DNA of 64,000 nt. It comes from Patescibacteria group bacterium. GTDB taxonomy: Bacteria; Patescibacteriota; UBA1384; XYA2-FULL-43-10; 1-14-0-10-43-13. The position numbers and the translations under genes were made by a program. Of this stretch, positions 19,811-44,237 are shown in pieces. The notes beneath the pieces were generated by a model, which was given only the letters and a program-made list of their open reading frames with translations, was not told where the DNA came from and did not search any database. Within the stretch, counting starts at the first letter, position 1. Every line of letters starts with the position of its first letter. Where the stretch lies: the NCBI GenBank assembly GCA_041666325.1, contig JBAYHC010000004.1, positions 128,929-192,928 of the forward strand, in the 5' to 3' direction.

Positions 19811-21805
19811 ATGAGGGGATCAAGACGAATACATAACAGTGAAGCCGTGGACCAGTGTCTATCGACCAAGGTTATGGCTGCGCTATTGACCTTGGGTGTG
19901 ATAATTTTACCAATGGCCCCCTTCGGCAAAGCTTTGGCCGCAAACGAATACACAGAGCTTGCACCCTGCAGTCTGGCATTTAACTCAACCAGCAATCTTC
20001 TCAAAAATGAAGCGGGGGAAAGTTCGGGCAACAGACAATACATTTTTTCCGCCAGTGACTTTGGAGAAAGATTCCAGATCGCGGGTAGCGGCCTGGGTAT
20101 GTCGTTTGATTCTTCGCACCAAAAAATAAATCTGAATTTTAAGCATCGTTGGCGAAGCGATAACGGAATTAGAGATGTTTCTCTAGAATTTACTTTCTCC
20201 AGTAAAAGCGGGACCAACTATTCGTACCGAAACACAAAGGTTACAACAGTATACCGGGGCAGCACCACCACAACGACAGGTAATTCAGACAATCCAGTAC
20301 TAACTATTTTGAAGGCACCAAAACAAATCGACTTTAATGCGTCAGGGCACGTAGACTTCTTTCTCGCACTAGGCGATACAACTAACTCTCCGAATGATAA
20401 TGTCTACTATCTCAACTGCACGGCTGCTCCAGATGGCGAAGCAGAGCCACCACCCCTGCCTGACCCAGACGATGGCGGTGGTGCTGGCGGCACACCCACG
20501 AGCGGCAGCACGGCAGCCCCGACAGCACCGTCAGCTCCGTCCGTTCCAGATCTTTGGCTCGATATGCAAAACTGCCGCAATCCAGAGAGTGCGGTCAATG
20601 GACCGAATGGGTTTGTGGTAACAAAAATAGGTTTCAACACCAATTCGCCCGATGATCCCAATAATGGCAAAACAATGACTGTCCTAGCAACCAAAACCGT
20701 GAATGGCGCCACGGAAACCATTAACACGCCGTTCGTCTATGACGAAACCCCCGGCAAAAACTCTGCCACCAGCACCAAGCTCTACTACGGTATTAACAAC
20801 GTGGCGGTCAACAAAATTTATGCTGTTATAGATCTGACCAGCGCCGCCAAGCTCTCCATTATCAAGGAAGCCACGACACCGGCATCGGCATGGAAGCCAT
20901 GGATGGATGACCTGACGCAGATGAACATGCGCCTAAATTGCAAGTACCCGATCAGCGCCGACTTATCGGCCGAATCGATGGACAACAGTGGTCCCGATGG
21001 AAAGCCGAGAATAACTGTCGCCGGCGACCCAACTCTCGGCCGCCCAGACATGAGATTTGAGCTCGGACGACTCGTCGTAACAGGCGGCGCCGCAACAACA
21101 GACAACAACTCCTTTTACTTTCTCTACAATAAATCCCTTGGAGCTATTGGTAGCAGCGACGTGTTTGAAAACAGATACAAGCACATGGCGATCAGACTGG
21201 ACATGAGTCCAGGACCGAAGCTGGTTCAAGTTTTCTATGGCGATATCAGAAATCCGGGTGATGACTCCAAGGAGGGTATCGCCGGATATGGCGGAGGCTG
21301 GTCCGCCAACGTCTTCTATGGCTGGGGATTCAGGGTCGGAAATGAGCTCATCGGCAAATCCGTCGCCGACTATGTCTATCGCAAGAAGGATCCGAACGAT
21401 AACAGCAAGTGCAGTGATACAGTGGTGGGACCGGAAACAAACCCGACAACAGCAGCACCAGACTGGGACAGCCTTGACGGAGGTTCAACCCCGCCAAGAG
21501 AATGTTTAATCCTAAATGGCATCAACATCGGCGATAATGCTAGCAAAACGCCCATTGGCTGGCTAAAACACTGGGGCATTCCGACAACCAAATCATCGAT
21601 CACTGATGCGCTCGGCGAGACTGAAGATATCGGGCCCTGCCAGGTTATCAAGGTAGGAACACTGACAGCCTTCAGTCCCAGAGGACTGGTCACACTCCTA
21701 AACCGCTCGCTTTGCGAGGTTGCTTACTTCGTCTATAGTGTCGGCCAGGGTTTGGCCGCCAAAGGAAAGGAAATTCTGGAGCAATCACTGAGTCTGCACT
21801 CTTAG
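19811..21805 (+). CDS. Secreted hypothetical protein (664 aa) with a signal peptide and a Thr/Pro/Gly-rich linker. It is the first gene of the T4SS-like cluster.
   Basis: The signal peptide is MAALLTLGVIILPMAPFGKALAA. Low-complexity linkers include TTTTGNSD and PPPLPDPDDGGGAGGTPTSGSTAAPTAPSAPSVP. The true start may be the internal Met at about 19874. Confidence 0.45.
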   Translation: MRGSRRIHNSEAVDQCLSTKVMAALLTLGVIILPMAPFGKALAANEYTELAPCSLAFNSTSNLLKNEAGESSGNRQYIFSASDFGERFQIAGSGLGMSFDSSHQKINLNFKHRWRSDNGIRDVSLEFTFSSKSGTNYSYRNTKVTTVYRGSTTTTTGNSDNPVLTILKAPKQIDFNASGHVDFFLALGDTTNSPNDNVYYLNCTAAPDGEAEPPPLPDPDDGGGAGGTPTSGSTAAPTAPSAPSVPDLWLDMQNCRNPESAVNGPNGFVVTKIGFNTNSPDDPNNGKTMTVLATKTVNGATETINTPFVYDETPGKNSATSTKLYYGINNVAVNKIYAVIDLTSAAKLSIIKEATTPASAWKPWMDDLTQMNMRLNCKYPISADLSAESMDNSGPDGKPRITVAGDPTLGRPDMRFELGRLVVTGGAATTDNNSFYFLYNKSLGAIGSSDVFENRYKHMAIRLDMSPGPKLVQVFYGDIRNPGDDSKEGIAGYGGGWSANVFYGWGFRVGNELIGKSVADYVYRKKDPNDNSKCSDTVVGPETNPTTAAPDWDSLDGGSTPPRECLILNGINIGDNASKTPIGWLKHWGIPTTKSSITDALGETEDIGPCQVIKVGTLTAFSPRGLVTLLNRSLCEVAYFVYSVGQGLAAKGKEILEQSLSLHS

Positions 21806-21817
21806 CGTCACCTTACG

Positions 21818-24694
21818 ATGAAAATAATTACAAAAGAAAAATCATTCGCTTTTCTACTGCCGGGCTTTATCGTTGGTGTTTTGCTGGCCGTGTTCTTGTT
21901 GCCGAGCGAAAGGGCATATGCCGTGGCAATGGAGCCAATCTACAAGGTTCTCCAACAAAACGACGACATCAAGGGCATCTGGCGCAACATCACCGACCTG
22001 ATCAACTACCTGATAGTGGCGGTCCTGATCTTTGTCGCCTTTGCTCAGATCCTGCGCATCAACCTTAACACCTATGGCGTCAAGAAAATTATTCCGAGTT
22101 TAATATTCGCTATCGTAGCCACTAATTTTAGCTATCTTTTCTGCCGGTTTCTAGTTGATATAGCCAATGTTCTACTCTCGCTTTTTGTTAGCCCCAATTC
22201 AGCGGTGATTACCAACCAATTCACAAACATTATCTTTGACCCCAGACCGTCAAGTGATGGCCGCACAATCACCAATCTTTTTGAGTTGGCTCTGGATATC
22301 GTCTTCATCTATGCCTCCGGAATCCTCATGTTTATCTTGGGCTACCTTTATCTGATCAGAAACTGGGTTATTTATTTCCTGGTCGCCATCTCTCCGATCG
22401 CCTTTATGTCGATGGTTTTACCGCAAACAAAGAGCGTCTTCAACCAGTGGTGGAGCAACTTTGTCAAATGGACATTCATGCCCGTCGTCTCCATCTTCTG
22501 GATCTGGCTCGGAACTGCCTGGTTTACCAAAATACCCGACTCCTCAAATAAGACAATGCTCTTTGTCTTTGCCTTAGTTTGTCTCTATATGGCCATCAAG
22601 ACGCCGTTTAGCATGGGCGGCCAAGTTATGCAACAGTGGGGCAACCTCGGCAAAAAGGTTTGGAACCGAACGGGCGGCGATCTCGGCAAAGCGGCCTGGC
22701 GCAACACCGGCGGCAAGGGTGTGGGCTGGGCCAAAAATCAATACGACACAGCCAAAGCGGACCTTGGCAACGCAGTAGTTTTGGCTGGGCGCAACGCTTG
22801 GAGTCGAGGCACCGGATTTACTAAAAGGCAAACTCTCGGACGTCTTCCTGGAGGCAGAAACGCCCAAGGTCAAAGGCAATCTGCCAACGACTGGCTCAAC
22901 ACACGAGTTCAAGGCGCTAGACAGGGTAGAATCTCAGCCATAGAAAGAAGGAAACTACAAATGGAGGGACCAGAGCTCGTAAGAAAGAAGATGGTCGAAG
23001 ATGCTAGAACCGATGCTGCGGAAAGACTGGTTAGAGATAGAGGAATCCCTGCCGATCAAAAATCTCGATTTAGATCCATGTTGCGATCATGGGTGCGCAG
23101 CAACAGTGATGCCTATATGGACAACGACCTGGATGACAACATTGCGTACCTACGCCGTAACGAGCTTCGTGATGCTCAAGGAAATGTTGTTGGTAGAGGA
23201 AATTACACTTCAGGCGATGGCCTCGGAGAGGTCATGTCACATGTTGTTGCGCTAAAACGTCGCAGAAGACAAACCGGTCATGCCCAAGAATGGGCTCAAA
23301 TTGATGCTTTTTTGAATACTCTGCCCCTAGGAACTGTTAACAGAACAAGTGGGCAGGTTAACCGCGTTACCGGGCCGGCCATCATGAACACCGATGAATC
23401 TGGCATAGTCGGAATATCCGCCGGCGATAATGCAGCGAGTGCTCAAGACGGACAAGCTTCAGGCGCTAGCAGTCAACCGCCCACATCCCAGGATGAGACA
23501 TTGCTGCAGCAAGAACAATTTGGCAAGGGCGCAAAATATCAACGATTAGCTGGGGCCCTGAGCATTCACCAGGCCGAGTCCATGAGAAGAGTGTTCCTGC
23601 AGGGGGAGAGGGTTGAGGATTTGCCGGAAACAACCCGTGCCGATATTCAGAAAGGTGGCCTCGAGGAAGATGTTGAGGCATATCGCAAAGACCTAATCAG
23701 TTTACGCGAAAAAACGGCACACGACATTCTCCAGGTTAAAGTTGCCGAGAATGACGGCCCGCTGGAGGAGAGCGCCGCAGACTTTCAGTCTGGCCTTGGC
23801 CATATGGCCAGAGCAATAAGCCACGATGGCAAGAGCTTGCCCGACCTAATGTCCGAGCTTGAGTCAATTAAGAAAAACTTGCGCAGCGAAGCACCGGATG
23901 TCAAGAAAGGTGCGGTCGAGGACCTGTTTAGGATGACGGATGAACCTATGGTAGAAAATCTTGAGGTCAAGGGCCGACTCGACCTTGCGGCAGGGAGAGC
24001 CCAGAAAATAGTTGACTCCATGCTTGTTGCAGGAGAAGCTGCGCCGATGGATCATTATGCCTCCGTGAGAGGGGACAGATCGCCAGAACAGGCGATCGTC
24101 GAGGAGAGTGCTAAGGGACAACAGAATGGATTTATCCAAACGCTCAAGGACAACTCCACGCCAAGTCTAGATGAAGCGCGTGGAGAAGCCGTCACACAGC
24201 TGGTTCAGGCAGCACAAAGCAAACCCCAGCCGCAAACGCAAGAAACAAGTCAGCCATCGTCAGCGGTGGACGAAACAGGAGAAAAGGTTGCGTCCTCAAT
24301 CGACGCTGCTCTATCAAGGCTATTTCAGGGCGGAGAACATGGCGATCTTTCTCACCTGTCGATGGGGGGAATGCTAAACCATGAAGAACTTGCGGCTCAA
24401 ATAGCTGGGGCGCTCAAAGATGAGATGGGTAGATTCGTCGGAGTCACAACAGGCATTGGAAATGTCGGCACGATGACAGTAGGAGAATTCCAGCGCGTCA
24501 TGAAGCAGGCCTACATTGAGGCTCTCCAGACCAACCAACAGCTCAACAAGTCGACTGTAGGCGATGCCTTTTTGGATGAAAAGTTTCGCCGGATATTCTT
24601 CCAGCAACTCTCTCTGGCCACTGAACGCGGTGTAAAAAAGGGCACACCCAAGCCACCAACGATCCCGACTCCGCCGTCACCACCAGCAGCCTAA
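21818..24694 (+). CDS. Large polytopic membrane protein (958 aa), VirB6/TrbL-like. It has about 6-7 N-terminal TM helices and a long hydrophilic Arg/Gly-rich C-terminal tail.
   Basis: The hydrophobicity pattern of the first roughly 300 aa fits VirB6/TrbL. The gene neighbours PrgI-like and VirB4 genes. There is a 13-bp gap to the upstream gene. Confidence 0.4.
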   Translation: MKIITKEKSFAFLLPGFIVGVLLAVFLLPSERAYAVAMEPIYKVLQQNDDIKGIWRNITDLINYLIVAVLIFVAFAQILRINLNTYGVKKIIPSLIFAIVATNFSYLFCRFLVDIANVLLSLFVSPNSAVITNQFTNIIFDPRPSSDGRTITNLFELALDIVFIYASGILMFILGYLYLIRNWVIYFLVAISPIAFMSMVLPQTKSVFNQWWSNFVKWTFMPVVSIFWIWLGTAWFTKIPDSSNKTMLFVFALVCLYMAIKTPFSMGGQVMQQWGNLGKKVWNRTGGDLGKAAWRNTGGKGVGWAKNQYDTAKADLGNAVVLAGRNAWSRGTGFTKRQTLGRLPGGRNAQGQRQSANDWLNTRVQGARQGRISAIERRKLQMEGPELVRKKMVEDARTDAAERLVRDRGIPADQKSRFRSMLRSWVRSNSDAYMDNDLDDNIAYLRRNELRDAQGNVVGRGNYTSGDGLGEVMSHVVALKRRRRQTGHAQEWAQIDAFLNTLPLGTVNRTSGQVNRVTGPAIMNTDESGIVGISAGDNAASAQDGQASGASSQPPTSQDETLLQQEQFGKGAKYQRLAGALSIHQAESMRRVFLQGERVEDLPETTRADIQKGGLEEDVEAYRKDLISLREKTAHDILQVKVAENDGPLEESAADFQSGLGHMARAISHDGKSLPDLMSELESIKKNLRSEAPDVKKGAVEDLFRMTDEPMVENLEVKGRLDLAAGRAQKIVDSMLVAGEAAPMDHYASVRGDRSPEQAIVEESAKGQQNGFIQTLKDNSTPSLDEARGEAVTQLVQAAQSKPQPQTQETSQPSSAVDETGEKVASSIDAALSRLFQGGEHGDLSHLSMGGMLNHEELAAQIAGALKDEMGRFVGVTTGIGNVGTMTVGEFQRVMKQAYIEALQTNQQLNKSTVGDAFLDEKFRRIFFQQLSLATERGVKKGTPKPPTIPTPPSPPAA

Positions 24695-24729
24695 ATTCGT
24701 CAAAAATCGAATAAACACGGAGACGTTTT

Positions 24730-26367
24730 ATGACAGACGCAGCAGCAGAACAACCCGTCCCACCCCCGGTAACACCAGAGGCAGGAAGCGAAGGACAAGA
24801 AGCGGCAAAAGCGGCTGAGTTTTATTATCTTTCGGAGGAGGAGATTGCTCAAGCCATCGCCGAAGCCAAGAACCGCCCCATTCCGCCGGAGAAAGCACAA
24901 AGAATCAGTCGAGACCTGGACGCTGTTGAAAAAATTCGACAGGATATTATCGGATTGGAAGCGCTATCACCGGAAGAAAGAGATAAAACCCTTAGAACCA
25001 TGTCCGGCGCGCCGAATGTCCGCCCCGTCTTTGATGTTCTTCTCGGAAAACCAAGCCAACAGCCGGCTGAGGTCGTCTCCACCGAACAACATCCGCGACA
25101 ACGGCTAATAGAAGACCTGAGAACGCGATTTGCCGGACAAGAAATAGGCGCTGACACATGGGAAGAGGTCGAGGAGTTCGTTGCAGAGAACACCGAGCTA
25201 TTCGACACGCTAGAAGCCAAAATACAAGAGCTGAGCAGAAAACCTGAATACAGTCGAATAGAAGTCAAGAAGAAGACCATCGAGATTTGCCTCCTGCAAT
25301 CTGTTGTCAACGGACATCTCACGAAGGAAGATTTGAAAACTGTCCTCGAGGGCGGAGTCCGCATCTTGTCCAATGAGGAGATCTCGCAGCTTGCCAAAAC
25401 CGAGCAAAGCTACGAGGGCATCATGTATTATGATCTGGGTAACCGGGCGCTCATTATTTCGGAGAGCGCTTTGGTTGACGAGTACCGCATGAAGAATGCG
25501 GAAACCGGACAAGAGCGAATAATTGAGATCGACATAGAACACTCCATAAACCACGAAATTGCCCACGGCATAGTTGAGAGGGGATTACTAACCTCCGGCG
25601 AGAAAAGAGCTCGCAAGGAGCTGCGTGAGGGCAAAGAGGGGGTAGAAATTCCACCCGGCCTGCTCTCCCTCGCCATGTCAGTCATTGCTGCGGCCGGCGA
25701 GGTGAAAGAATACATGGTTTACCATTCAAGAAATGTCTTGAATGGCCTAGAAAAGCTAGGAGACATTCCGGCAAAGGACAGACAAAACGCTCAGGTTAAC
25801 GCAGCCATAGAGATAATTACTGACTATACAGCCATCTTTATGCAATCTGATGGCAAGGAAGAGAATTTTGTCGCCAAGTGTCTCGCCAAAACAGACACCG
25901 ACTTGCTTGTGAATCATCTTGCCAGGCGCTTCGGAATCAATGAAACTGACCCCGCGATAGTCAGGCAAAGGATCGGAGAAAAGATTAATGCGTTTAACGA
26001 GACGGACGAGAATGAGAAGAAGAGCATTCTCGCGCAGTACCCGGAGCTAGCCAAGGTCAACACTATGTTTCGAAAATTCTACGGGCTACTATATCAAGGA
26101 CGCGATGAGCTGGATAGAACCGAGGAAAAAATTGGCAAACGACAAGGCAAGCTCAAGGCGATGGGCAAGATCGGAACAGCAGCTGATGATAACGATGAGC
26201 GTACACTATTGCCGGATGAGGCAGCGTCTTTCCCGCAACAGAAAAACGAACAAAATGGTCAGCAAGAGGGCGGCGCTGTGAAGGAAGGTCTTGCAAGTGT
26301 TTTCCAATTTGTCCAGGCCTTTGCCGAAGAAGTAGGCGGGGGAGTAAATCAGGCCGTGTCACAATAG
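24730..26367 (+). CDS. Hypothetical soluble protein (545 aa) containing an HExxH motif (IEHSINHEIAHG). It may be a metallopeptidase-like protein.
   Basis: No confident family match was found. The HEIAH motif was seen in the translation. The N-terminus is Pro/Glu-rich. Confidence 0.35.
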   Translation: MTDAAAEQPVPPPVTPEAGSEGQEAAKAAEFYYLSEEEIAQAIAEAKNRPIPPEKAQRISRDLDAVEKIRQDIIGLEALSPEERDKTLRTMSGAPNVRPVFDVLLGKPSQQPAEVVSTEQHPRQRLIEDLRTRFAGQEIGADTWEEVEEFVAENTELFDTLEAKIQELSRKPEYSRIEVKKKTIEICLLQSVVNGHLTKEDLKTVLEGGVRILSNEEISQLAKTEQSYEGIMYYDLGNRALIISESALVDEYRMKNAETGQERIIEIDIEHSINHEIAHGIVERGLLTSGEKRARKELREGKEGVEIPPGLLSLAMSVIAAAGEVKEYMVYHSRNVLNGLEKLGDIPAKDRQNAQVNAAIEIITDYTAIFMQSDGKEENFVAKCLAKTDTDLLVNHLARRFGINETDPAIVRQRIGEKINAFNETDENEKKSILAQYPELAKVNTMFRKFYGLLYQGRDELDRTEEKIGKRQGKLKAMGKIGTAADDNDERTLLPDEAASFPQQKNEQNGQQEGGAVKEGLASVFQFVQAFAEEVGGGVNQAVSQ

Positions 26368-26432
26368 CATCTCAGGTCACAAAGCAAGTAGGCATGTAGG
26401 CTAGTAGGCAGAGTTGCACCACTGAAGAGTTA

Positions 26433-26493
26433 TTACTAGCTTACTAGCTTACTAGCTTACTAGCTTACTAGCTTACTAGCTTACTAGCTTATT
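26433..26493. repeat. Microsatellite (TTACTAGC)x7 with a partial eighth unit
   Basis: Seen directly in the sequence. The unit is related to the pervasive GCTTAC / CTAGTAAG intergenic motif family. Confidence 0.9.
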
Positions 26494-26587
26494 TTCTTTA
26501 TTGCTCTCATTACAGAACATTGTTATAATAGTTTCGAATCGTTAACTTCCTTATATTGGAAGTGGTTTTGGAAACTCGCGAGGGGAA

Positions 26588-26986
26588 ATGCGCTACAAGG
26601 TGCCACAAAATATCGACATGCAAGACAGAATCATTGGCCCACTGACGATGATTCAGTTTATCTATGCAATTGTTGGGACAGGCGCTGCCTACTCACTCTA
26701 TATGACCCTGCCAAAGCCACTCAATCTAATCGCGGCTGTTCCCGTTCTAATTTTTACAATTTGTATTGTCTTTATCAAAATTAACGAGAGACCCTTCCTA
26801 AATTTCTTCTTAGCCATGATAGAGTTTCTCTCCGCCCCCAAAAAACGCGTCTGGCATCACGGCAGTGTCGACAACCTTAAGGTTATTATTTACAGCAACA
26901 AAGACAACAGCAAACAGAAAGCTGCCGTCAAACATGTTTCCGAGGATGAAATCAAAAAACTAGCAAAAAAATTAGACGAGAATTAA
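26588..26986 (+). CDS. PrgI / VirB3-like small T4SS membrane protein (132 aa, two TM helices)
   Basis: The N-terminus ...YKVPQNIDMQDRIIGPLTMIQFIY... is followed by two hydrophobic helices. It sits upstream of the VirB4 homologue, as PrgI and TcpD do in Gram-positive T4SS loci. Confidence 0.5.
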   Translation: MRYKVPQNIDMQDRIIGPLTMIQFIYAIVGTGAAYSLYMTLPKPLNLIAAVPVLIFTICIVFIKINERPFLNFFLAMIEFLSAPKKRVWHHGSVDNLKVIIYSNKDNSKQKAAVKHVSEDEIKKLAKKLDEN

Positions 26987-27060
26987 TAGGCGTAAGCAAT
27001 CAGGCGCAAGGCGAAAGACCTTGACTCAGTTACATTAATTGCAATTGACTTACGACTGAC

Positions 27061-27116
27061 GCCTCTCGCCCGCCTGCATCGCCTGGAGCGAAGCGACTGC
27101 GGGCAGGCCTCTCACA
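27061..27116. repeat. Intergenic copy of the 36-bp core repeat (27071-27106), flanked by cctctc direct repeats
   Basis: The core is identical to the one at 3963-3998. The flanks are cctctc...cctctc. The spurious minus-strand ORF 27050..27373 reads through it. Confidence 0.8.
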
Positions 27117-27125
27117 CTATCAATT

Positions 27126-28184: not shown

Positions 28185-28201
28185 TCCAACAATAGGAATA
28201 C

Positions 28202-30043: not shown

Positions 30044-30050
30044 ACAAGTC

Positions 30051-31475: not shown

Positions 31476-31534
31476 CAACTCTTAAGGTATTATCAAAGTC
31501 AATTGAGACTGCACGTTAAACAAGAAGAGAAGGA

Positions 31535-32869: not shown

Positions 32870-32957
32870 ATGAGGCTAGTAAGCTGGTAGGCAAGTAGGC
32901 ATTTAGGTAATAGTGATTCGCTGTGCTGTTGCTTCAGCCTACCAACGTACCTGCCTA

Positions 32958-32974
32958 CCCCGCCTTCGGCGGGG
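32958..32974 (+). terminator. Perfect GC hairpin CCCCGCC-ttcg-GCGGGG embedded in a longer GCTAGTAAG / CTTACTAGC inverted repeat
   Basis: Seen directly in the sequence. It lies about 90 bp downstream of the 31535..32869 gene. Confidence 0.4.
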
Positions 32975-32999
32975 CCTACTAGCTTAATCTTTGTGACTA

Positions 33000-34715: not shown

Positions 34716-37700
34716 ATGAGATCAGTATTCCGAAAAACATTGCTCTGGCTAATCACAATCTCGATCACACTCGAACCAGTTTTCGTATTGCTGCCGCAAA
34801 ACGTCTCAGCCCAAGACGCTGCACCGGAGTCGCTCCAAGATTCTAACCCATATGACGAGAGTGATATCAGAAGCAATGCTGATAGCGACGACCTTGGAGA
34901 TGAAGAGAACTACAGACTTGAGCCGGGTCAACTGGAGAATATTGAGGACGTCAAAACCAAAGAGGCATTAGATCCTGTCATGGATGCCATAAGCAGAGAA
35001 AGCGATATTACTGTAGTTGGCGACTCTGCAGAAGAGCGGTCTGCCGCAAGAAGACTGGCTGCCATACTCGAGGAATACACCCCATACAGAAACTTAGTCA
35101 CATACGACGACTTCCTGGCTGGTCAGCAAGAGGCAAAGATTGTTCTCTCGGCAGGCGATCTCGAAGTACTGCGTGCCATGCACTACATATCAAAGGTTGC
35201 ACCAGATTTCAGTGAAGATTCTGTCGCCATGTTTAACAGCCTCAACCCCTCAACGACAGAGGCGGGCGAAAGGCTTCTGAGCAGAGACGATATTCGAAGT
35301 AGTGATGGTGTCGGCATTGTTGATGAAGCCACGATGCAGACGATACACAACAAGTGGCAGTCGGAAATAACGATTGATAGCGACAATGCAGTAGAACGAG
35401 GAGACAATGAAGATTTTGCAAACGCCATCCGATCATATTTTGTCAGCTTGAAACAAGGCGGGGCACTGGAGACCAATCAGAACAAGAAGATAGTAAACAA
35501 GGAACTCTTCCACGACTTCGTCCAACAGGCAAGACGAGACTTTGCCGAGTCATGGAGCATAGACAATGTTACGTCAGGTACTCTAGCAAACCTCAACAAA
35601 AACGACTTAATGGCAATTTCCGGATACAGCGAGTCAGAGATTGACCGCATCTTGCAGGACAAACCATCTGATTCACAACCACAAGGTGGTGATAGGTGGA
35701 GATACTTTGCGGAAAGCATTCTAGATATCGTAAAAAACTCCCAGATCGACATTCGCGTCCTTAAGACCCTAGTTTACCTTGTAACCCCGAAGAGTGAGGG
35801 CGGAGCAGGACACTGGCGAATCAGGGCAAGAAAAATCGTCCAAACCAACTCAAAATTATCGCATGAATCTGATAGCGTTCGAGATGCCACTTGCAGCGGC
35901 GACGGCACGCAATCAGCGGCTTCCTGCGGTGAATCGATAAACAATGAAGGAACACCAATAAGCGGTGCAAGTGCGGACATCCAGGACTCAAGCGGCAATG
36001 TTACCGGCCAAGCTGTCATCACAGATGAACCGGAGGAAATTCTCTCAGCCCATGGCGACGGCCAAGCAGTTGATATTTCGGAGATAGACGACATTAGATG
36101 CACCGTAATCAAATACCGCCACATTGGTCATTCCTTTAAAGAAAAACGACCAGCGACTCCCGTAAAGCTCGCCTGGCAAACAACAGAGGGGTATGCGAGT
36201 TCGGGCGGCAACAATCCGATCGATATCATGGGAATGATCCGAAGCTCAGCCACAGAAAGCCTACAAAACTTTGCTAATGACCTCGGCGCAGATGCAATAA
36301 CCGATTTTGAGGGTGACTTGTCGCAGTCAGGATTTTCCGATATCGTCGGTCTCTTCGGCAAGTCTATGATGGCCAGTGCCGTCAACTCTGCCAGTTTGGA
36401 TTTCTTTGGCGATAATGTCGAGGAAACACTTCGAAACCTCGGGTCCGTCTATTTTGCAGACTATCTCGGAATTCCACGAAATTTATTTGTCGGTACAGAA
36501 CAGGAGAAATTAGCATCGCTAGACTATGTCTCCCGTGTTATCGGACAGGCTGCAATCGAAAAACGACTCAATATACCCTTTGGATCCCTATCAACAGAGG
36601 TTAAGTTGTCGACCGCCGATGCAAGCACTGGCGACTCTTCGCAACCGACTATTTACTCTGGACTAGAGGCCATGATGCTAAATACGGGACTCCGCAAATT
36701 GGAGTGGGAGATGATACTTGATCCGGGCGATCTTGACAACATGTTTTGGAGTGATCCGAATAAACAGATACCGATTCAAACTCTTCACCATCGAATTGGA
36801 TCGCGAATCATCGAGAAAAAATTTAATCTGGACAAAGGTATGCTTGATTCAGTCGTGGCTGGAAAAGATTTGGCCTACCTCAAGACCCGGTTTGGCGAGA
36901 GAGCGAGGCTATTGTTTATCGACCCAACATACTTCGACAACATATTGAGTCTTAATGCCGGCACGACAAAATTACTTTTTGATGGGCAAACGTCTCCAAG
37001 CGACTACATCGCTACCGTGGGCAGAAGGAGATATCTCAATACTGTTAGGGGCCTTAGACACTTATCATCTACCAGTTCAGCATATGCGGTACCGCCGACA
37101 ACACCTGTCACAACGACAATCTACAGCCCTGATAATATTGCTCTAAATGATTGTCTCTCTAACCCACAAACGTGCCGAACTTTTACTAATCCTGATGGCA
37201 TAACTGTGCTGCAAAAAACCGAAAACATTGATACGTGGAATAGCGCCATATTGGGCCGCAAGGAGGCCATAGAAAATATTGGAACATTTACTGTAGCCAG
37301 ATTACTGGCGCATCCGCAAGATTACACACCAGAGGAGGCTAATAGGATCAATCAGGTAGGCCTTGAGCATCAACAACTTGACGACGGTGTTTCGATGACA
37401 ATTGATCCAAAAGATAAAGGCGTTGGTGCCTTGCATCAATGGATAATCGCCAACCAACAAAAATATGCTTTTGATCACAATGATGGATTTAACGGCCGAA
37501 CAGTAACATCCTGGGACAAGAAAAATGCGGAGATACCAAATTCCAGTACAGAAACCTGCCGAAATGGTATTGCCTGTGTAAGAGTAAGGGTCAATTCGGT
37601 CTTCATGGGAGAATCCAGCACACCAACAGAAACAGATACCATTGGCGCACCAGTGAACGTGAATGTACACACTCCTGTTTACAATGTTTATCCGGCAGGC

Positions 37701-40700
37701 GAGGCTGATGCATATATCTCAGAGGAACCAGGGCGAAAGCTTGACCTAAATCACGGCGACTTATACAGACTCTTTGGTTATGCCGAAGCTAATGGGGAGG
37801 CAGTCTTTAGACGTATTGGACAAAAGTTACTGTTTTATATGATCGCGAACAAAGCTCTAGCAGCGAAAGGACAAAGCTCTTCGGTTAAGCTTAATCTTAG
37901 TGAAACCAACCCCAGGCTTATTCCTGGTAGCGACACAGCGATCTTTTACTTCTCGCGTTTTGACCGCGCCCTGCAACTAGCAAGAACGATCAAGGGCGAC
38001 TGGGAAAATGAACGAGAGCCTGGTTTCGATCGAATCATAGGCCTGATGAATGAACTTGACCGCGAGTTTCAGGTTGGTAGTCAGGCGCTCCTGACTCTGA
38101 ACCTTCTCGAAATAGCGAACACCGTTAGAGCCAACATATACCTCATAGATCAGCTTACAATTGCTCTTGAGGAGAAGCGCCTCTACGCGACCCACATGAT
38201 CGAGAAGATCAACAAGACCATAAGAGATGTAAATGAGCTTATCAAGGTGACATCGGAGTTCCTGTCCGGACAAGAGATACCTTCAGCCGAGCTCTTAACT
38301 GTCGACCAAATTCGAACAGACGCATTTGCAAAGCCGCTCAGGGGCAGACCAAGAGCACAGCGAAAGATAAATCCGCTTGTGATCCTGGACTTCCTGGCGG
38401 GCAGAATCACCCCGTTAGACTTCTTTGTTCTGCTTGGTGCGAACCAACTTGAAGCTCGCCTTGGCTTACCACAAAACACCCTTGTTTACTACATACAGAA
38501 TTCTGAAACAATGGGAATCGCTAATCTCGATACATTTTATGTTGCGCTTGGTCAGGCCAGGATAGAGGAAGAATACGAGCTGCCCAGATACTACTTCCAG
38601 GGCTATGTTGTACCGGGCGACCGCAAGGTACCGGACTTCAGGCGAGACTGGACAGCACTAAAGCGACTTCTCGTTAACCGGCAGGATTCGGCCAAATACA
38701 GGCAAGAGGTGGGATGGACCGGGATATATCCGGCACTATTCCCACTAGCCAAGACGGATTCGTACTCCTTTGACGAACGCTTAATAAGTGATTTTGACAA
38801 CAGGATGAAGGCGATACGTGAAAGCGAGGAGAAAAAGAGAGTTACAAACAAACCATATACCGACCTGATCAAGGATGCTGAAAAGCTATGGCAAGACGAC
38901 CGAAAGCACGAAAGGGAAGAGCGATATAGTGACGAGGGCGCAGAACGCGGTAGGTTCGGAGACATCGACCTGGGCGATCTGCTCAAAAACCTAACAGACC
39001 GAAACTATGCCTCTACTGAGCCTTCAGCCCAGTCAAATCTGATGTTCAGTCTCAGAATGCCTGGCAATTATACTGCACTAACGCAAGGTTCGACAATCGC
39101 CTGGGAGACTAGCGGAGCAAAGGCAAGAGCTGCAGCGATCGATAAACAATTCGGCCTTGCCGCAAACACAACTCACAACTTATTCACCGGCGACACAGTC
39201 TTGGCGCCAAGCGGGACAAAGATACTGTCACAATCAGAGAAGGACCTCGCTAATTATTTTGGCGGGATGAGCATCGGAGCCGTTGAAACCTACCTTCAGG
39301 TTCTAAACAACGAGCTTCCCTTCGCAGACCTGCAAAAACTGGGCCTTGTTTCCGACTACAACTTCCAAAATCGCTATGCACTACAAGAGGACGCGCCAAG
39401 CGACAACGAGTGTCCGGTTCTTTATGCTCAGGTGGAGCCAGGAAAGCCATCAGGCAAAGGAAAATTCTCTGTTAACTACACTACTATCGAGCCTGATACT
39501 TATAGTTATTACGACAAAAGAGGACGCCACACCTTCAAGAGCAGGAGGGAGGCAGAACGATACTCCAACGAGCATGTCGATGACAGAATTGATGTTGTTG
39601 GTCATATGGCCAAACAATTAAAGACTCTTTACGGACCAATACTTGGAAGAACAGCGGGCGGCCAACTGGGATCAGGTGACAAGTGGCGAGTACCAAGTAT
39701 AGATTTCAATAATGAGTCTGAAATCGCCGATAACCTAAGACTGTTGTTGATGAAAAATATCGGCGGTCTGTTTACGCTTGCTGATATCAGGGCAATCAAC
39801 GAAGCCACCGATGCCAATGATTTAGATGGCGATGGCGACCGATCTGAACAGTCAATAATTACAGTCAGTATCACTCTTGAGAACGGGGAAACCAAAGACT
39901 ACACTCTTAGCCCCAACACATTGGCCGGATCACCATACGACCCAGGTGTACTAGAGAAACTTTTCATGCGAAAGAAGACACAGAAACCGCTACAGGAATT
40001 CAAGAAGGCAGTCGGCCAGGTAGAAGCAGAAAAGGCAGTCAGCTGGAAACTGTTCTCAGAGTTAGTTGGAGTCAAGATCAGGCCAGAGTTCTTCGGGCCA
40101 GATGACCTATATAGCATCTTGCACGGCGACATGAGACCGATTTATAGAATTGGCTCCTATCTTATCGAGAAAGAAATGCACCTGCCTCAGCACTCTATAG
40201 CTCTGCTGATGTCAGCACTGAGTGGCAAGGCGAAGGAGTGCCAACTATCCCAAATTGGAGCCAATGTCTTGGGGGGTCTTGTTGGCCTCAAGTATTTGCC
40301 GTTGAATTTTAATGTTGCCAGCCCCAACGACATGGCTCAAGCCATCGGACAAGCCAAGATAGAGGAAACGCTTGGATTACCAAGAAAAACATTCAGTGGT
40401 GATTCTCTGTTGGATATCATCAACAGGATTGGTCCGATCACATTTGCCCTTGTCTTCAACATCCCAGTCGGGAAATCGGTCATCAGTAACCAGAACACAA
40501 TATTTAGCGATTCTGTTGGCAACAATGTTTCTCGCTTGGATGCTATCCTTGGGAATGAAGCCAATCAGGTTAGAAACACTAGCGGTAGATACAAACTCAA
40601 AAAGATTCATGATTTCCTTATCTCAAATCATGTTATCAACGACTTGGCCGGAGCGGGGGTCGAGAGCCTTGAGAATGAGCTAATTCAACAAACCATACAC

Positions 40701-43700
40701 TTTGTCCAAAACTATGCCACCTATGCCGGGCAGCAATTACCAGATAGAGCGTCATCAACAGAGATTGAATTTGCCGAAGAGGTTAAAAACTTTACCTCGC
40801 AAGTGAATAGTATTGACTCCCTGCTCAAAATCGACCGCAATTCTACGCTATATCTCCTAAGCACACTCTATGCCGGCGATAATCAGTCAGAACACGGTCC
40901 AAATAAGTTCAGGGAAAAGGTTGGCTGGGCTCACGTTCAAAAACTGATTACTCTTAGACTTGCGGAATTATTGAATATCGACACCGAAAGAGAACAGGCC
41001 GCCGCAGATATCATCACTGGCATTGCCAGCTACTTCCACTGCAGCGAGGATGACACCAACCAAGTTACCGGGCAGTGCGAAAACAGCAATTATGGCAATG
41101 TAGCTTGGCTCTTTAGTAAACTCTCGACTGTCTTTGTTCTTCGCTTAGACGAAAGAGCCGGTTTTCCGACCGGAACATTTGACCAGATGATCAAAGACCC
41201 GGTCAACGCCCCTATGACACTGCTTAAGATCGGGGCAAACAAACTTGATGCGAAGCTACAAAGGGACCCCAGCCGAATTTTTTCCTTCACAGGTTCATAT
41301 CGCTTCATTAACCAGGAATACCAGCAATCTCTTAGTGACGGTTCTCTTGGTTTTATTTCTGATTACCGTGACCAAAACATTGCGGATCAGCAATGTCACG
41401 CCCAGTACTATCCCAACGGCCTAGATATGCGGTTAGACAGTCAATACAAGGCAGTCTTGGCCGTTTACAACGAGCCAGCCCCAAGCAGAACCGAACACCC
41501 AGAAGAATATCAAGCTTGGTATGACCGACATGCTGATGCTTCTGACCAGCTCTACTCTGGTCGCAGTGGTACAATCGGACGAACGATATCTGATCTCAAT
41601 ACACAATACAATAATTGTGTAGAGAGCAAGCGCGAGAGAGAGACCGTTGCAAAATGCGTCGGAGAAACACCAGCACCAGGCGGAACATGCACCACGGGAG
41701 GAGGAAGTGGAAACAATATCTTCCGCGACCTCATCCATCATATCAAGCTCGGCATAGCTGAGGAGATCGTGTATGCAATCAGACACGTCGCAGATGTAAA
41801 TGGAGTTCCCGTGGGCGTTGAAATGCCCAAAGAAGACATGTATGAGTTGCTATTCAGAGGCGATATTCGCTTCCTCTACATCGCTGCCACCGCCTTCACT
41901 GTCAACTTCATCACAGCTATTGTCGAGGGTGATGAAAGTCGACAACCGTGGCCGCCGGCACTCCGCATTACTTATGGGGAGATCCGGCTAGTCTATATCG
42001 GCGACCCGAGATCAGACCAGGCCGCCAGAGATGCCGCTACAATTGCTTTTGCCAACACATACACCCCAGGTGACATCAATGTTACAAGTGGCGACATAAA
42101 CGCGAGTCTTCCGGGTAGTCCACATGCCCCTCCTGTACCCAATGGTGAAGTCTGTCCCCCTAACGCACCAACAGGATCTCAATGTATTCCCTCCGACTCT
42201 TATCGCAACGGAACAGCCACCGGCACTGGCCTGGATCCAAGATCAAACGCTACCCAAATGGGTAATGTCTATGGTGTAAACACAAATGACCCAACCCTGC
42301 ACGCAAGAGCAGAGGCCTACACAACATCAGTACTGGGAAATGTTGGAAGTGCCTGGAGCAACCTACAAACAGCATACGGCGAAGAACCTCAAAGAGGTGC
42401 TTACCGCAATGATGCGGAATACCAGAGCGCACATAGCACATGGGAGGAAAGAATCGGCGAGTACCCAAGTGCAGACAATCCCCAGGGCTCTGGTTTGCGC
42501 GGACAACTCGCTGCGGCAGGCGATAGAAGAGATGAACTCAACAGGCGAAGAGACGAGGCAGAGGGCAAATCTCGCGCCATTTATCGCAACAATTTGATAT
42601 ACAAAACCTTTGATGCCGCCCTGTGGAAAGTAGACAAAAACATTTTCCCTGGCTTTACCCGTGCACTGATGGCCGGTAGTCTAAGAGAGAAACAGCTAGC
42701 GCTACTCACATATCTTGAAAACGGCCTCAAAAACGGCAACCTATTCTTTGGTGTTCTTAGATTTGATGCCATCCCTGCAGAACTCGTCGGAGTCATTGAT
42801 GACTTTGTCCATATCTTCCTGTTAAAGGATAGGGACTGGAACAGCTTCCTTACAGGAAGTGGCGCTAAGGTTCTAGCAGGTTTTGTCTCCAACAATTCCA
42901 GGAAATGGTTTAACGGTCTCTATATTCCGCCCGATATGATCATTGGTCTAATGGTGGGAATCACTACTGGTGAATGGGGCTTTGATTTCTCATCTCGCGG
43001 CGACACTATCACCCCAACCGCCACAGTTAATGGCGTCAAATTGCCAACACTGGGCAGTGCTCTCATGAGTATCGTTGAAACGAGAATATTCTCCTGGGCC
43101 GACACAAAGCTGGGTCTCCCGCCAGGAACAGTATCAACCGCGTTCAAGATGGTGGTAAAAATATACAAGGCGACAATGCTGTACTTCGAGCTACAGCACG
43201 CAATCGGAATATACAGCCAAATAACGAACCTACAGGGGATATATGATGCCGCTGAAGCAGCAGGAGCGGGCGCTGACGTACTGGGTGATATCTCAGGCGA
43301 GATTAGCGCCTTAGAGGGCAAGATTGACCCCAGCACCCTCGATGCCCTAGATGCCAACCAGGCGGGCAATGGCGAGATGCTTGACGGCAAGATTCTCGAC
43401 ATCAGAAAATTAATTGCGGCAGCCATAGCTGAGTTGATTACCTTTGCGATCATGCAAGCAATTCAGAAACTATTTGGCGAAGAAATTGGACGGTTTGAGG
43501 AAAGTATGGGACTGGTGCCAGGATCAACGATGGTTTTGATTAATTTCGTAGTAGGGGAGCTGGTTGTGATGGCTGTAAACGCAGTTGCTGGATCTGCTTT
43601 GCTTCCAGCCGCTGGCCCGATCGGTTTTGGAATCGCTGTGATTTTATTCATTGCCATTAATCTCTGGGGCATACATAAAATTGAGATAAAATGTAATGCT

Positions 43701-44237
43701 GACGGTCAGTACGTTAACTGGAGCGAGGAAAAGGGGACCTATACAACCGGTCCAGATGGCCAACCCTTGACTAGTCAGACATTAGCAGACTATGATGTTA
43801 CCCCTATTGGTTGGTGGGAAAAACGGGTTACGAGCAGCTCTAGCTTCCAGACAGAGTTTAGTGAATTAATGAAACAAAAAACAATTCTCACTGCTAGGTA
43901 TAAGGCCAACAGGTTAATTAAAGATATGCTAGAGATGCAAAATAGCTCAAGATTCAGAGATGAAACAGGCAAGGGCATAGTTCCAACGCAAATAATGATC
44001 GGCAGGGCAGAAGACGCAAAGAACGTTGAGCAGAACGGCGATATGATCTCTAGAAAGATGTGTCAACAAAGACTGGGCAAAGACTCTGTTGCTGTTGAAA
44101 CCAGAAGCAGCGAGACAGGAGAGCTGCTCGGATATGTTTGCGGTGACAGGGATACTAAACCAGGGGGGACCCCTCCGACAAAGATAGGTATCTGGAAAAA
44201 CCTCCAAACAACAGCTTGGTCACATATAGGGTTCTAA
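34716..44237 (+). CDS. Giant secreted or surface protein (3173 aa). It has an N-terminal signal peptide and C-terminal hydrophobic anchor helices. It is translationally coupled to the M23 peptidase gene.
   Basis: A single uninterrupted 9.5-kb ORF was found. The signal peptide is MRSVFRKTLLWLITISITLEPVFVLLPQNVSAQDA. C-terminal TM segments include ...VVGELVVMAVNAVAGSALLPAAGPIGFGIAVILFIAINLWGI.... The ATG at 34716 abuts the TAG at 34713-34715. Confidence 0.6.
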   Translation: MRSVFRKTLLWLITISITLEPVFVLLPQNVSAQDAAPESLQDSNPYDESDIRSNADSDDLGDEENYRLEPGQLENIEDVKTKEALDPVMDAISRESDITVVGDSAEERSAARRLAAILEEYTPYRNLVTYDDFLAGQQEAKIVLSAGDLEVLRAMHYISKVAPDFSEDSVAMFNSLNPSTTEAGERLLSRDDIRSSDGVGIVDEATMQTIHNKWQSEITIDSDNAVERGDNEDFANAIRSYFVSLKQGGALETNQNKKIVNKELFHDFVQQARRDFAESWSIDNVTSGTLANLNKNDLMAISGYSESEIDRILQDKPSDSQPQGGDRWRYFAESILDIVKNSQIDIRVLKTLVYLVTPKSEGGAGHWRIRARKIVQTNSKLSHESDSVRDATCSGDGTQSAASCGESINNEGTPISGASADIQDSSGNVTGQAVITDEPEEILSAHGDGQAVDISEIDDIRCTVIKYRHIGHSFKEKRPATPVKLAWQTTEGYASSGGNNPIDIMGMIRSSATESLQNFANDLGADAITDFEGDLSQSGFSDIVGLFGKSMMASAVNSASLDFFGDNVEETLRNLGSVYFADYLGIPRNLFVGTEQEKLASLDYVSRVIGQAAIEKRLNIPFGSLSTEVKLSTADASTGDSSQPTIYSGLEAMMLNTGLRKLEWEMILDPGDLDNMFWSDPNKQIPIQTLHHRIGSRIIEKKFNLDKGMLDSVVAGKDLAYLKTRFGERARLLFIDPTYFDNILSLNAGTTKLLFDGQTSPSDYIATVGRRRYLNTVRGLRHLSSTSSAYAVPPTTPVTTTIYSPDNIALNDCLSNPQTCRTFTNPDGITVLQKTENIDTWNSAILGRKEAIENIGTFTVARLLAHPQDYTPEEANRINQVGLEHQQLDDGVSMTIDPKDKGVGALHQWIIANQQKYAFDHNDGFNGRTVTSWDKKNAEIPNSSTETCRNGIACVRVRVNSVFMGESSTPTETDTIGAPVNVNVHTPVYNVYPAGEADAYISEEPGRKLDLNHGDLYRLFGYAEANGEAVFRRIGQKLLFYMIANKALAAKGQSSSVKLNLSETNPRLIPGSDTAIFYFSRFDRALQLARTIKGDWENEREPGFDRIIGLMNELDREFQVGSQALLTLNLLEIANTVRANIYLIDQLTIALEEKRLYATHMIEKINKTIRDVNELIKVTSEFLSGQEIPSAELLTVDQIRTDAFAKPLRGRPRAQRKINPLVILDFLAGRITPLDFFVLLGANQLEARLGLPQNTLVYYIQNSETMGIANLDTFYVALGQARIEEEYELPRYYFQGYVVPGDRKVPDFRRDWTALKRLLVNRQDSAKYRQEVGWTGIYPALFPLAKTDSYSFDERLISDFDNRMKAIRESEEKKRVTNKPYTDLIKDAEKLWQDDRKHEREERYSDEGAERGRFGDIDLGDLLKNLTDRNYASTEPSAQSNLMFSLRMPGNYTALTQGSTIAWETSGAKARAAAIDKQFGLAANTTHNLFTGDTVLAPSGTKILSQSEKDLANYFGGMSIGAVETYLQVLNNELPFADLQKLGLVSDYNFQNRYALQEDAPSDNECPVLYAQVEPGKPSGKGKFSVNYTTIEPDTYSYYDKRGRHTFKSRREAERYSNEHVDDRIDVVGHMAKQLKTLYGPILGRTAGGQLGSGDKWRVPSIDFNNESEIADNLRLLLMKNIGGLFTLADIRAINEATDANDLDGDGDRSEQSIITVSITLENGETKDYTLSPNTLAGSPYDPGVLEKLFMRKKTQKPLQEFKKAVGQVEAEKAVSWKLFSELVGVKIRPEFFGPDDLYSILHGDMRPIYRIGSYLIEKEMHLPQHSIALLMSALSGKAKECQLSQIGANVLGGLVGLKYLPLNFNVASPNDMAQAIGQAKIEETLGLPRKTFSGDSLLDIINRIGPITFALVFNIPVGKSVISNQNTIFSDSVGNNVSRLDAILGNEANQVRNTSGRYKLKKIHDFLISNHVINDLAGAGVESLENELIQQTIHFVQNYATYAGQQLPDRASSTEIEFAEEVKNFTSQVNSIDSLLKIDRNSTLYLLSTLYAGDNQSEHGPNKFREKVGWAHVQKLITLRLAELLNIDTEREQAAADIITGIASYFHCSEDDTNQVTGQCENSNYGNVAWLFSKLSTVFVLRLDERAGFPTGTFDQMIKDPVNAPMTLLKIGANKLDAKLQRDPSRIFSFTGSYRFINQEYQQSLSDGSLGFISDYRDQNIADQQCHAQYYPNGLDMRLDSQYKAVLAVYNEPAPSRTEHPEEYQAWYDRHADASDQLYSGRSGTIGRTISDLNTQYNNCVESKRERETVAKCVGETPAPGGTCTTGGGSGNNIFRDLIHHIKLGIAEEIVYAIRHVADVNGVPVGVEMPKEDMYELLFRGDIRFLYIAATAFTVNFITAIVEGDESRQPWPPALRITYGEIRLVYIGDPRSDQAARDAATIAFANTYTPGDINVTSGDINASLPGSPHAPPVPNGEVCPPNAPTGSQCIPSDSYRNGTATGTGLDPRSNATQMGNVYGVNTNDPTLHARAEAYTTSVLGNVGSAWSNLQTAYGEEPQRGAYRNDAEYQSAHSTWEERIGEYPSADNPQGSGLRGQLAAAGDRRDELNRRRDEAEGKSRAIYRNNLIYKTFDAALWKVDKNIFPGFTRALMAGSLREKQLALLTYLENGLKNGNLFFGVLRFDAIPAELVGVIDDFVHIFLLKDRDWNSFLTGSGAKVLAGFVSNNSRKWFNGLYIPPDMIIGLMVGITTGEWGFDFSSRGDTITPTATVNGVKLPTLGSALMSIVETRIFSWADTKLGLPPGTVSTAFKMVVKIYKATMLYFELQHAIGIYSQITNLQGIYDAAEAAGAGADVLGDISGEISALEGKIDPSTLDALDANQAGNGEMLDGKILDIRKLIAAAIAELITFAIMQAIQKLFGEEIGRFEESMGLVPGSTMVLINFVVGELVVMAVNAVAGSALLPAAGPIGFGIAVILFIAINLWGIHKIEIKCNADGQYVNWSEEKGTYTTGPDGQPLTSQTLADYDVTPIGWWEKRVTSSSSFQTEFSELMKQKTILTARYKANRLIKDMLEMQNSSRFRDETGKGIVPTQIMIGRAEDAKNVEQNGDMISRKMCQQRLGKDSVAVETRSSETGELLGYVCGDRDTKPGGTPPTKIGIWKNLQTTAWSHIGF

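Follow-up and report, generated by a model that had tools for sequence, protein, structure and literature searches.

Among the closest described systems is that of Southlakia epibionticum, in which transposon sequencing (Tn-seq) showed an apparent type IV secretion system (T4SS), SEML1_0006-0019, to be essential for epibiotic growth (Wang et al. 2023; PMC10633639). This T4SS is similar to the conjugative systems of Gram-positive bacteria; its pilin array is essential, and no coupling or relaxase proteins can be recognised in it (PMC10633639). Its genes are ordered dnaA, dnaN, recF, SEML1_0004, a PEGA protein (SEML1_0005, also essential), a lysozyme/glucosaminidase/Cys-protease hydrolase and a 1114-amino-acid (aa) peptidase-like protein with a Hedgehog/DD-peptidase domain, followed by a 613-aa VirB4, a 294-aa protein, PrgI, a VirB6-like protein and, after other genes, six pilins, Hsp20, ComFC and tRNA-Ser (PMC10633639). 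A survey of 2,474 virB4 genes described an MPF_FATA-related clade in Patescibacteria with TrsD, PrgI, VirB2 arrays, rare relaxases and a location near dnaA (Quinonero-Coronel et al. 2025; PMC12102498), points that a 2025 review restates. Here, we analysed a 64-kb window (the whole stretch of DNA under study) of a 193-kb contig, JBAYHC010000004.1, from a metagenome-assembled genome (MAG) of a Patescibacteria group bacterium, and report that the gene block at 19136-44237 is very probably a chromosomal, vertically inherited Patescibacteria T4SS, which descends from the conjugation machinery of monoderm MPF_FATA systems and is no longer tied to DNA mobilisation. An original prediction, made from the letters of the window, had proposed T4SS-like Patescibacteria machinery rather than a conjugative element, and this stands: the block encodes a VirB4, the scans found no relaxase or coupling protein, and the gene order parallels the S. 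epibionticum locus. Because that order matches both the S. epibionticum locus and the Patescibacteria survey, the reading is right but describes a published system; the block re-identifies a known T4SS in a new genome.

The block is a run of 11 open reading frames (ORFs) on the plus strand (219, 664, 958, 545, 132, 352, 613, 422, 444, 571 and 3173 aa) separated by gaps of 0-220 nt. The ten ORFs of the original prediction were all found at their given coordinates and strand, but the block begins one gene earlier, at 19136-19795. Profile assignments were judged against curated family cut-offs, and comparisons drew on about 80 VirB4-anchored loci from relatives, with 73 examined for the VirB4 split and 83 others for an octamer repeat, both described below. 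The central assignment is that of the VirB4 ATPase (28202-30043; 613 aa, MPF_FATA type), which scored 372 bits against the NCBIfam profile conju_CD1110 (cut-off 325), with further profile matches to P-loop_TraG (101 bits), AAA_10 and DUF87, and which is matched by the VirB4 structure PDB 4ag5 at E=3e-47. Walker A (GSGKS, aa 284) and Walker B (DEAW, aa 494) motifs are in place, and the protein is 70-82% identical to many Patescibacteria VirB4 proteins. Immediately upstream lies a 352-aa TrsD-like protein with a Gln/Glu/Thr-rich tail (27126-28184), and the proposal that these two genes form a split VirB4 was borne out: on the 752 positions of conju_CD1110 the 613-aa protein covers 180-733 and the 352-aa protein 2-73, so that together they tile a full-length Gram-positive VirB4 and represent one ancestral VirB4. 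The smaller protein also matches VirB4_plasma (positions 103-231) and TrsD (16-97) of NCBIfam at the domain level, with sub-threshold scores as expected for a fragment set against whole-protein cut-offs, and has a precomputed PF26593 TraC-like match. Since the two are encoded separately in 72 of 73 related loci, the split is ancestral and no lesion. What had been called the N-terminal piece of VirB4 is the TrsD homologue of the literature, the commonest T4SS component beside virB4 in Patescibacteria (PMC12102498).

Two further translocon proteins are encoded upstream. The small membrane protein at 26588-26986 (132 aa) was confirmed as PrgI/VirB3-like by Pfam PrgI (45.8 bits, cut-off 27), and its gene precedes the TrsD-VirB4 pair in nearly all 80 loci. 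The VirB6/TrbL-like protein (21818-24694; 958 aa, of which about 690 form a hydrophilic tail) is tentatively assigned from a TrbL score of 21.8 bits, under the cut-off of 25.9, a precomputed TrbL_3 match, five to six hydrophobic segments in aa 1-270 and its position, homologues being found upstream of prgI across loci; the survey of Patescibacteria likewise finds VirB6 by weak profiles only (PMC12102498). The hydrophobic segments agree with the predicted polytopic nature, but the Arg/Gly-rich composition attributed to the whole tail holds only for the first ~130 aa (271-400; 15% Gly and 11.5% Arg).

The chromosomal setting of the block is that of a resident locus. Upstream are genes for LeuRS, TsaD, FemAB, a Mur ligase, an Xer-like recombinase, PAP2 and BacA, and downstream those for DciA, RecF, DnaN, DnaA, YidC and a PilB-type ATPase; the interval 0.7-5 kb beyond the block end holds dnaA, dnaN, recF and a cluster of DnaA-box-like sites. 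This cluster, at 47405-49271, comprises 11 of the 21 DnaA-box-like sites of the window, including the sole perfect box, and so gives a distance of about 3-5 kb between oriC and the block. Profile scans of the window ORFs of at least 400 aa, and of the flanks of the block, found no relaxase and no VirD4/TcpA, as had been predicted; of the relaxase-plus-oriT signature of an integrative conjugative element (ICE), the window ORFs scanned thus gave no relaxase family match. No att-like direct repeat longer than 32 nt flanks the block. The tyrosine recombinase encoded 2.5 kb upstream is Xer-like (XerD/XerC, 249-251 bits), and the flank that it forms with PAP2 and BacA is kept in relatives at 50-58% protein identity. 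Indeed, a relative with 79% VirB4 identity repeats the whole arrangement: Xer-PAP2-BacA, a 214-aa and a 692-aa protein, a VirB6-like protein, a small protein, PrgI, TrsD, VirB4, hydrolase, beta-propeller protein, M23 protein and a 2806-aa giant. That this arrangement is kept while the flank proteins are only 50-58% identical argues for vertical inheritance and against a mobile insertion. In dozens of species whose VirB4 is 60-82% identical, the block sits at this same place. There is no sharp step in G+C at its upstream edge, and its G+C is 0.46-0.51 against 0.41-0.42 on the dnaA/oriC side. The nearest VirB4 loci are labelled Berkelbacteria, Patescibacteria or, generically, Saccharibacteria, and the host lineage is probably Berkelbacteria-related. 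We also observed a minimum of cumulative GC skew at about 46-48 kb, which, with the DnaA-box cluster (region 47259-49271), locates oriC immediately to the right of the block. Transcription of the 25-kb T4SS operon is therefore directed at the origin and meets the leftward replication fork head-on.

A component that the original prediction had not included lies 11 kb from the core operon, across oriC. Five VirB2-like T4SS pilin genes occupy 55825-58679 on the minus strand (55825-56172, 56353-56652, 56757-57071, 57071-58306 and 58326-58679), the fourth encoding 411 aa with an extended N-terminal domain. Four of the pilins match PF18895 (T4SS_pilin) at 48.1, 45.5, 29.4 and 31.2 bits (cut-off 26.6), and the product of the remaining gene shares 65% identity with the 115-aa pilin. 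Such arrays are a published hallmark of the Patescibacteria T4SS (PMC12102498; PMC10633639). Beyond the pilins follow genes for Hsp20 (61558-61989), a ComFC-like protein (62154-62852) and tRNA-Ser (62975-63064). An ORF for a 491-aa lipoprotein-like protein (58673-60148, minus strand), with a readable lipobox-like ALSGC, overlaps the start of the array by 7 nt; it matched no Pfam or PHROG family, and could be a pilus-associated component, its membership in the T4SS being uncertain. Between oriC and the pilins we also noted a PilB/T2SSE-type ATPase (396 bits; 52510-54159), which makes type IV pilus and T4SS genes neighbours, and a polytopic spermidine-synthase-like protein (54250-55734). A gene for a four-helix bundle of the 23S-rRNA-intervening-sequence/Avd type lies by the pilins (60154-60513, minus strand) and has a paralogue next to xer in one related locus (L003:429-809).

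Downstream of virB4, after a gap of 163 nt, come four genes with gaps of 0-130 nt, a spacing compatible with a single transcription unit. The first (30207-31475) encodes a VirB1/PrgK-like, membrane-anchored hydrolase of 422 aa with a transmembrane (TM) segment at aa 24-58. It had been predicted to combine glucosaminidase and CHAP domains: the CHAP half is secure (37.3 bits, above cut-off), with the Cys and His motifs readable in the sequence, but the Glucosaminidase match of 25.4 bits falls under the cut-off of 30.2 and this part is best called glucosaminidase-like. The protein also has endolysin matches in PHROG, and in relatives the same position holds other hydrolase types, for example a Peptidase_M74 protein in L003. 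The second gene (31535-32869) encodes the predicted PEGA/TolB-like protein, a membrane-anchored protein of 444 aa (TM aa 29-56) with PEGA at 34.3 bits (cut-off 20.8) and weak PD40/beta-propeller matches; it is found downstream of virB4 in most loci with at least 63% VirB4 identity. The third (33000-34715) encodes a bitopic protein of 571 aa (TM aa 246-284) and had been called an M23 peptidase. Its C-terminal domain does match Peptidase_M23 (35.9 bits, cut-off 28.7), but the active-site motifs are degenerate: HxxxD has become CDAVD, HxH has become QVHLE and the catalytic His is Ser, so that three of the four canonical histidines are gone. These substitutions are common to all four homologues that could be aligned. 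Since the canonical motifs are replaced both here and in the homologues, the domain is more likely to be of the LytM type with a binding or regulatory role than to be an endopeptidase. Its gene stands just upstream of the giant gene in related loci as well. The N-terminal half of a profile of the protein apparently matches shorter proteins of the giant's family (L033, L036 and L039); this match covers low-complexity and TM sequence, with the M23 domain unmatched, and we did not use it as a sign of gene fusion.

The last gene of the block (34716-44237) encodes a giant protein of 3173 aa. Its predicted features were all found: a signal-like segment at the N-terminus, hydrophobic segments near the C-terminus (aa 2898-2991) and a start ATG directly after the TAG of the M23-like gene. 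A conserved alpha/beta domain forms the C-terminus. No Pfam domain was detected, either in the whole protein or in five overlapping segments, and the same was true of seven distant members of the family. Twenty-six homologues of 2300-3160 aa align along the whole protein, with strong conservation of the extreme C-terminus, and an exhaustive search of aa 330-800 against 1.84 billion representative sequences returned only 170 clusters at E<=0.001, nearly all of 1400-3280 aa; the distance from the N-terminus to the matched region is 200-700 residues throughout. In 26 loci with 60-82% VirB4 identity, virB4 is followed by a full-size homologue. Six more loci gave no strong match to the long profile, but in all of them, the complete Berkelbacteria genome CP011213 among them, a profile of the core only finds shorter relatives of 836-1479 aa in the same position. 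Where coverage was adequate and VirB4 identity at least 60%, every locus thus carries the giant or a shorter relative after virB4; loci below 60% identity have no giant-family gene within 10 kb. On these comparisons, the family is a lineage-specific yet constant last gene of the T4SS operon whose length varies about four-fold.

The giant protein has a conserved core at aa ~340-490, with the pattern D-x-R-V-L...GGAGH...S-A-H-x-x-G-Q-A-V-D-I-S-E-I-D...P-I-K-L-A-W-Q-T. In its SxHxxGxAxD motif His446 is near-invariant (at least 90% of aligned sequences) and Asp453 invariant. When a profile of 28 core sequences was compared with PDB, 17 of the 18 best matches were hedgehog N-domains aligned on the zinc motif (E ~0.6-1, not significant), and seven family members gave faint Pfam matches to VanY, Extensin-like_C and Peptidase_M15_2 on the same core residues (E 0.03-0.16). 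All of these LAS-type matches fall in one clan, and none is significant (E 0.03-1). LAS (Hedgehog/DD-peptidase; M15/VanY, M74) enzymes share the likeness of S-x-H-x-x-G-x-A-x-D to their zinc motif, but they have a third zinc-ligand His that is not evident in the giant core, where a conserved AWQT stands in the place expected for WH/HxH. The core probably adopts a LAS-type fold, whether or not it is catalytically competent. Other comparisons were negative: an AlphaFold2 model of aa 300-1320 built from a 26-sequence alignment had a mean predicted local distance difference test (pLDDT) score of 59, with the core below 50, and no Foldseek match in PDB at E<=0.001; neither of the two AlphaFold2 models of giant regions matched a known fold; a profile search of the 550-aa conserved region against PDB gave no meaningful match; and hhalign found the core unrelated to the Peptidase_M74 protein of L003. 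A motif 'IGxxxIExxLgLPxGS' occurs in at least five strict copies, with about a dozen looser copies in the family consensus, and coincides with a weak HTH_68 match in one family member; the copies may be HTH-like 'LGLPxGS' helical modules. The shorter core-domain proteins, as a separate observation, show a clearer VanY-like pattern, 'SGYKD ... SAHKDGLASDV' (L039:13575-16082, which is Berkelbacteria CP011213; L033:15508-18069; L036:15779-19516; L040:15138-19574; L042:12883-17142).

The original prediction had labelled the giant protein a putative adhesin, and no test supports this; the joint action on a host envelope that it suggested for the hydrolases and the giant is likewise conjectural. The giant has no LPXTG motif, no Ig-like or other adhesin domain, no Pfam domain at all and no fold match, and we rejected both a classical and a PrgB-type adhesin. 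Most likely, judging from its place in the operon, it is an extracellular scaffold or a wall-spanning extension of the machine, a classical adhesin being less likely. A more speculative idea, which we regard as doubtful but possible, is that in the Berkelbacteria-related lineage the giant family serves the Patescibacteria T4SS as a substrate or as a structural part not recognised before. If so, the giant might be an extension that spans the wall or breaches that of the host, and together with its degenerate LytM partner might replace the VirB8/adhesin layer that is missing relative to monoderm T4SSs.

The remaining genes of the block lie at its start. The first (19136-19795; 219 aa) encodes a protein with a TM segment at aa 16-46 followed by a helical, weakly TPR-like region (TPR_2 E=0.01); it is separated by 15 nt from the gene at 19811 and has homologues in the same position at 11 related loci. 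The second (19811-21805) encodes a secreted or anchored, fast-evolving protein of 664 aa with a hydrophobic N-terminal segment (aa 15-44) and no match in Pfam, NCBIfam or PHROG. An iterative search detected one homologue of it among 80 loci, and an ORF of 600-700 aa occupies its position in L003 and L064. Between the VirB6-like gene and prgI stands a gene for a 545-aa cytoplasmic-type protein (24730-26367), a putative zinc metallopeptidase in which the predicted HExxH motif was borne out. A word-indexed homologue search returned the query alone, so relatives were taken from positional ORFs in related loci; in an alignment of 12 such homologues, each encoded directly upstream of prgI, H275, E276 and H279 are the sole invariant columns, and E361, about 85 residues after the motif, is near-invariant. 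The protein has no TM or signal segment, and no relative in Pfam or PDB, even when the family profile was run against PDB sequences, and it is missing from the loci of the closest relatives. From the position of its gene, we infer that it is a candidate substrate or processing factor of the T4SS.

How these parts might work together can be outlined by analogy with known systems. VirB4 and the TrsD-like protein, docked by PrgI to the VirB6-like channel, would power the building of a VirB2 filament or conduit across the cell wall of the epibiont itself, in which the CHAP/glucosaminidase enzyme would make a local opening. Rather than acting as classic M23 enzymes, the degenerate LytM protein and the giant's LAS-like core may bind peptidoglycan or regulate its cleavage, and the PEGA/beta-propeller, degenerate LytM and giant proteins could form or decorate the extracellular part. 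The apparatus as a whole would mediate contact-dependent exchange with a host bacterium, either the export of a protein such as the HExxH protein or the import of host material.

Several points weigh against this interpretation. VirB6 (TrbL), TrsD and Glucosaminidase all score under their curated cut-offs, and no protein of the block has a sequence match to a VirB8-like component, for which the 219-aa and 664-aa proteins are candidates. The role given to the giant is taken from position only, and its N-terminal model is of low confidence (pLDDT 59). A coupling protein (T4CP) or relaxase could lie outside the 64-kb window of the 193-kb MAG contig, and in many Patescibacteria T4CP homologues are encoded far from virB4 (PMC12102498). 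The genes upstream for FemAB, Mur ligase, PAP2 and BacA are peptidoglycan-precursor genes, so the hydrolases could serve turnover of the cell's own wall.

One alternative concerns a functional variant of the same machine rather than its identity. The T4SS could act as an importer, taking up DNA or nucleotides from the host in the manner of ComB. Patescibacteria are unable to make nucleotides, the locus has no T4CP or relaxase nearby, as is the case for ComB of Helicobacter pylori, and the ComFC-like gene at 62154-62852 adjoins the pilin array; import has also been raised in the literature, because in S. epibionticum comEC is dispensable while the T4SS is essential. However, the operon holds no DNA-binding or nuclease component that we could identify, export would account just as well for the VirB2 pilins and for a cytoplasmic HExxH protein, and experiments favour neither direction. 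We consider import unlikely.

A different explanation would leave the translocon as it is and detach the genes at 30207-44237 from it: the hydrolase-like genes and the giant might be a module for remodelling or dividing the cell's own wall, co-located with the T4SS by operon history. The peptidoglycan-precursor genes upstream would suit such a module, the giant has no T4SS-related domain, and degenerate LytM proteins such as EnvC and NlpD, with which the degenerate M23-like domain may be compared, classically regulate division amidases. Yet a dedicated hydrolase of the VirB1 type is a normal T4SS part. Moreover, the genes at 30207-44237 stay directly downstream of virB4 in many species without being accompanied by the FemAB and Mur genes, the small gaps that follow virB4 are compatible with one transcription unit, and in S. 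epibionticum the PEGA, lysozyme-like and peptidase equivalents are counted in the essential T4SS cluster. A module of this kind thus seems improbable.

Finally, an ICE, or its decaying remnant near the origin, that serves or served DNA transfer and whose relaxase, T4CP and oriT lie outside the window or have been lost, is very improbable. In its favour, VirB4 belongs to the conjugative family conju_CD1110, the block is preceded at 2.5 kb by a tyrosine recombinase gene, relaxases do occur in a minority of Patescibacteria (PMC12102498) and the analysis covered part of the contig. Against it, that recombinase is Xer-like and holds its position with PAP2 and BacA in several species, direct repeats above 32 nt are absent from the flanks, no abrupt change of G+C marks the upstream edge (though the values of the block lie above those of the dnaA/oriC side), the same locus recurs in dozens of species at 60-82% VirB4 identity, the window ORFs scanned include no relaxase or T4CP, and the published survey reaches the same conclusion for the clade (PMC12102498). 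A vertically inherited T4SS of the Patescibacteria type is therefore the reading that we retain.

Some further observations concern the window at large. A perfect tandem repeat of the octanucleotide (TTACTAGC), in 7.4 copies at 26433-26491, falls within the 220 nt that separate the HExxH gene from prgI and shortly precedes an extended -10-like site, TGtTATAAT, at about 26521-26529. Degenerate octamer-like copies occur at 19074-19121, upstream of the first block gene, and at 50433-50464, and none of the 83 other loci searched contains the (TTACTAGC) repeat, which might act as a promoter element, either phase-variable or UP-like. Scans for promoters and terminators gave counts not above those in shuffled sequence. 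Between the LeuRS and TsaD genes, a gene with a Fic/DOC domain is preceded by a small HTH_17 gene in a toxin-antitoxin-like arrangement (11110-11780, minus strand). Perfect or near-perfect tandem repeats also occur within coding regions: 46 nt x 2.1 in a class-V aminotransferase gene (7261-7358), 15 nt x 4.3 at the 5' end of the xer-like gene (17233-17297) and 7 nt x 4.6 in the FemAB-like gene (13660-13691). Lastly, an ORF of 400 aa at 429-1631 (minus strand) has a weak DndB-like match (22.9 bits, under cut-off) and lies in the window's sole stretch with a G+C of 0.53.

No T4SS had been shown to be essential for the growth of its owner before that of Patescibacteria, and to the core picture of this system the locus described here adds nothing. 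Its value lies in comparison: across a large lineage without cultivated members, the last gene of the operon is in every case one for a giant envelope protein, domain-less and fast-expanding, which is paired with a degenerate LytM protein. We did not find in the literature searched the giant family as a constant member of the T4SS operon, its degenerate LytM partner or the conserved HExxH protein, whose roles we infer. The giant, the LytM protein and, in the many members that have it, the HExxH protein are concrete candidates for the machine's missing outer components and for an effector that it may secrete, and the giant family is a target for structure-based annotation.

Compared with S. epibionticum ML1 (Saccharimonadia), a comparison drawn from gene order and published descriptions rather than from protein sequences, the locus shares with SEML1_0004-0019 a chromosomal location adjoining dnaA-dnaN-recF, the absence of relaxase and T4CP from the cluster, and the order recF, PEGA, hydrolase, peptidase-like protein, 613-aa VirB4, ~300-aa TrsD-like protein, PrgI and ~1000-aa VirB6-like protein. 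A VirB2-like pilin array followed by Hsp20, ComFC and tRNA-Ser is likewise common to both, as is the convergent arrangement of the T4SS locus with recF. Read leftwards from recF, the order in the window thus parallels SEML1_0003-0022, most of whose genes are essential by Tn-seq. The two loci differ in that the pilins of the window are split from the core by dnaA/oriC, yidC, the PilB-like ATPase and other genes; in that M23-like and 3173-aa genes stand between PEGA and recF, whereas SEML1 has its 1114-aa gene between hydrolase and VirB4; and in that the window has one VirB6-like gene where SEML1 has two, and adds the HExxH and 664-aa secreted proteins. With the Patescibacteria clade of the survey (PMC12102498) the locus shares an MPF_FATA VirB4, a separate TrsD, PrgI/VirB3, a weakly matched VirB6, VirB2 arrays, the lack of a relaxase and a place near dnaA/dnaN. 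That survey reports that no adhesin was detected, and text searches of it found no mention of Berkelbacteria or of large proteins, which places the giant family, the degenerate M23 partner and the HExxH protein outside its coverage.

With monoderm MPF_FATA T4SSs (pCF10 Prg/Pcf, pGO1 Trs and C. difficile CTn2 CD1110) the locus has in common a VirB4 above the CD1110 cut-off, PrgI, a VirB6-like protein, a TrsD-like protein as in pGO1 and a PrgK-like bifunctional hydrolase. Unlike those systems, the window has no recognised relaxase, T4CP or oriT, no LPXTG adhesin of the PrgB type and no recognised VirB8-like protein; it does have VirB2-like pilins, which the Gram-positive systems do not, and its T4SS locus is not mobile but chromosomal and conserved across species.

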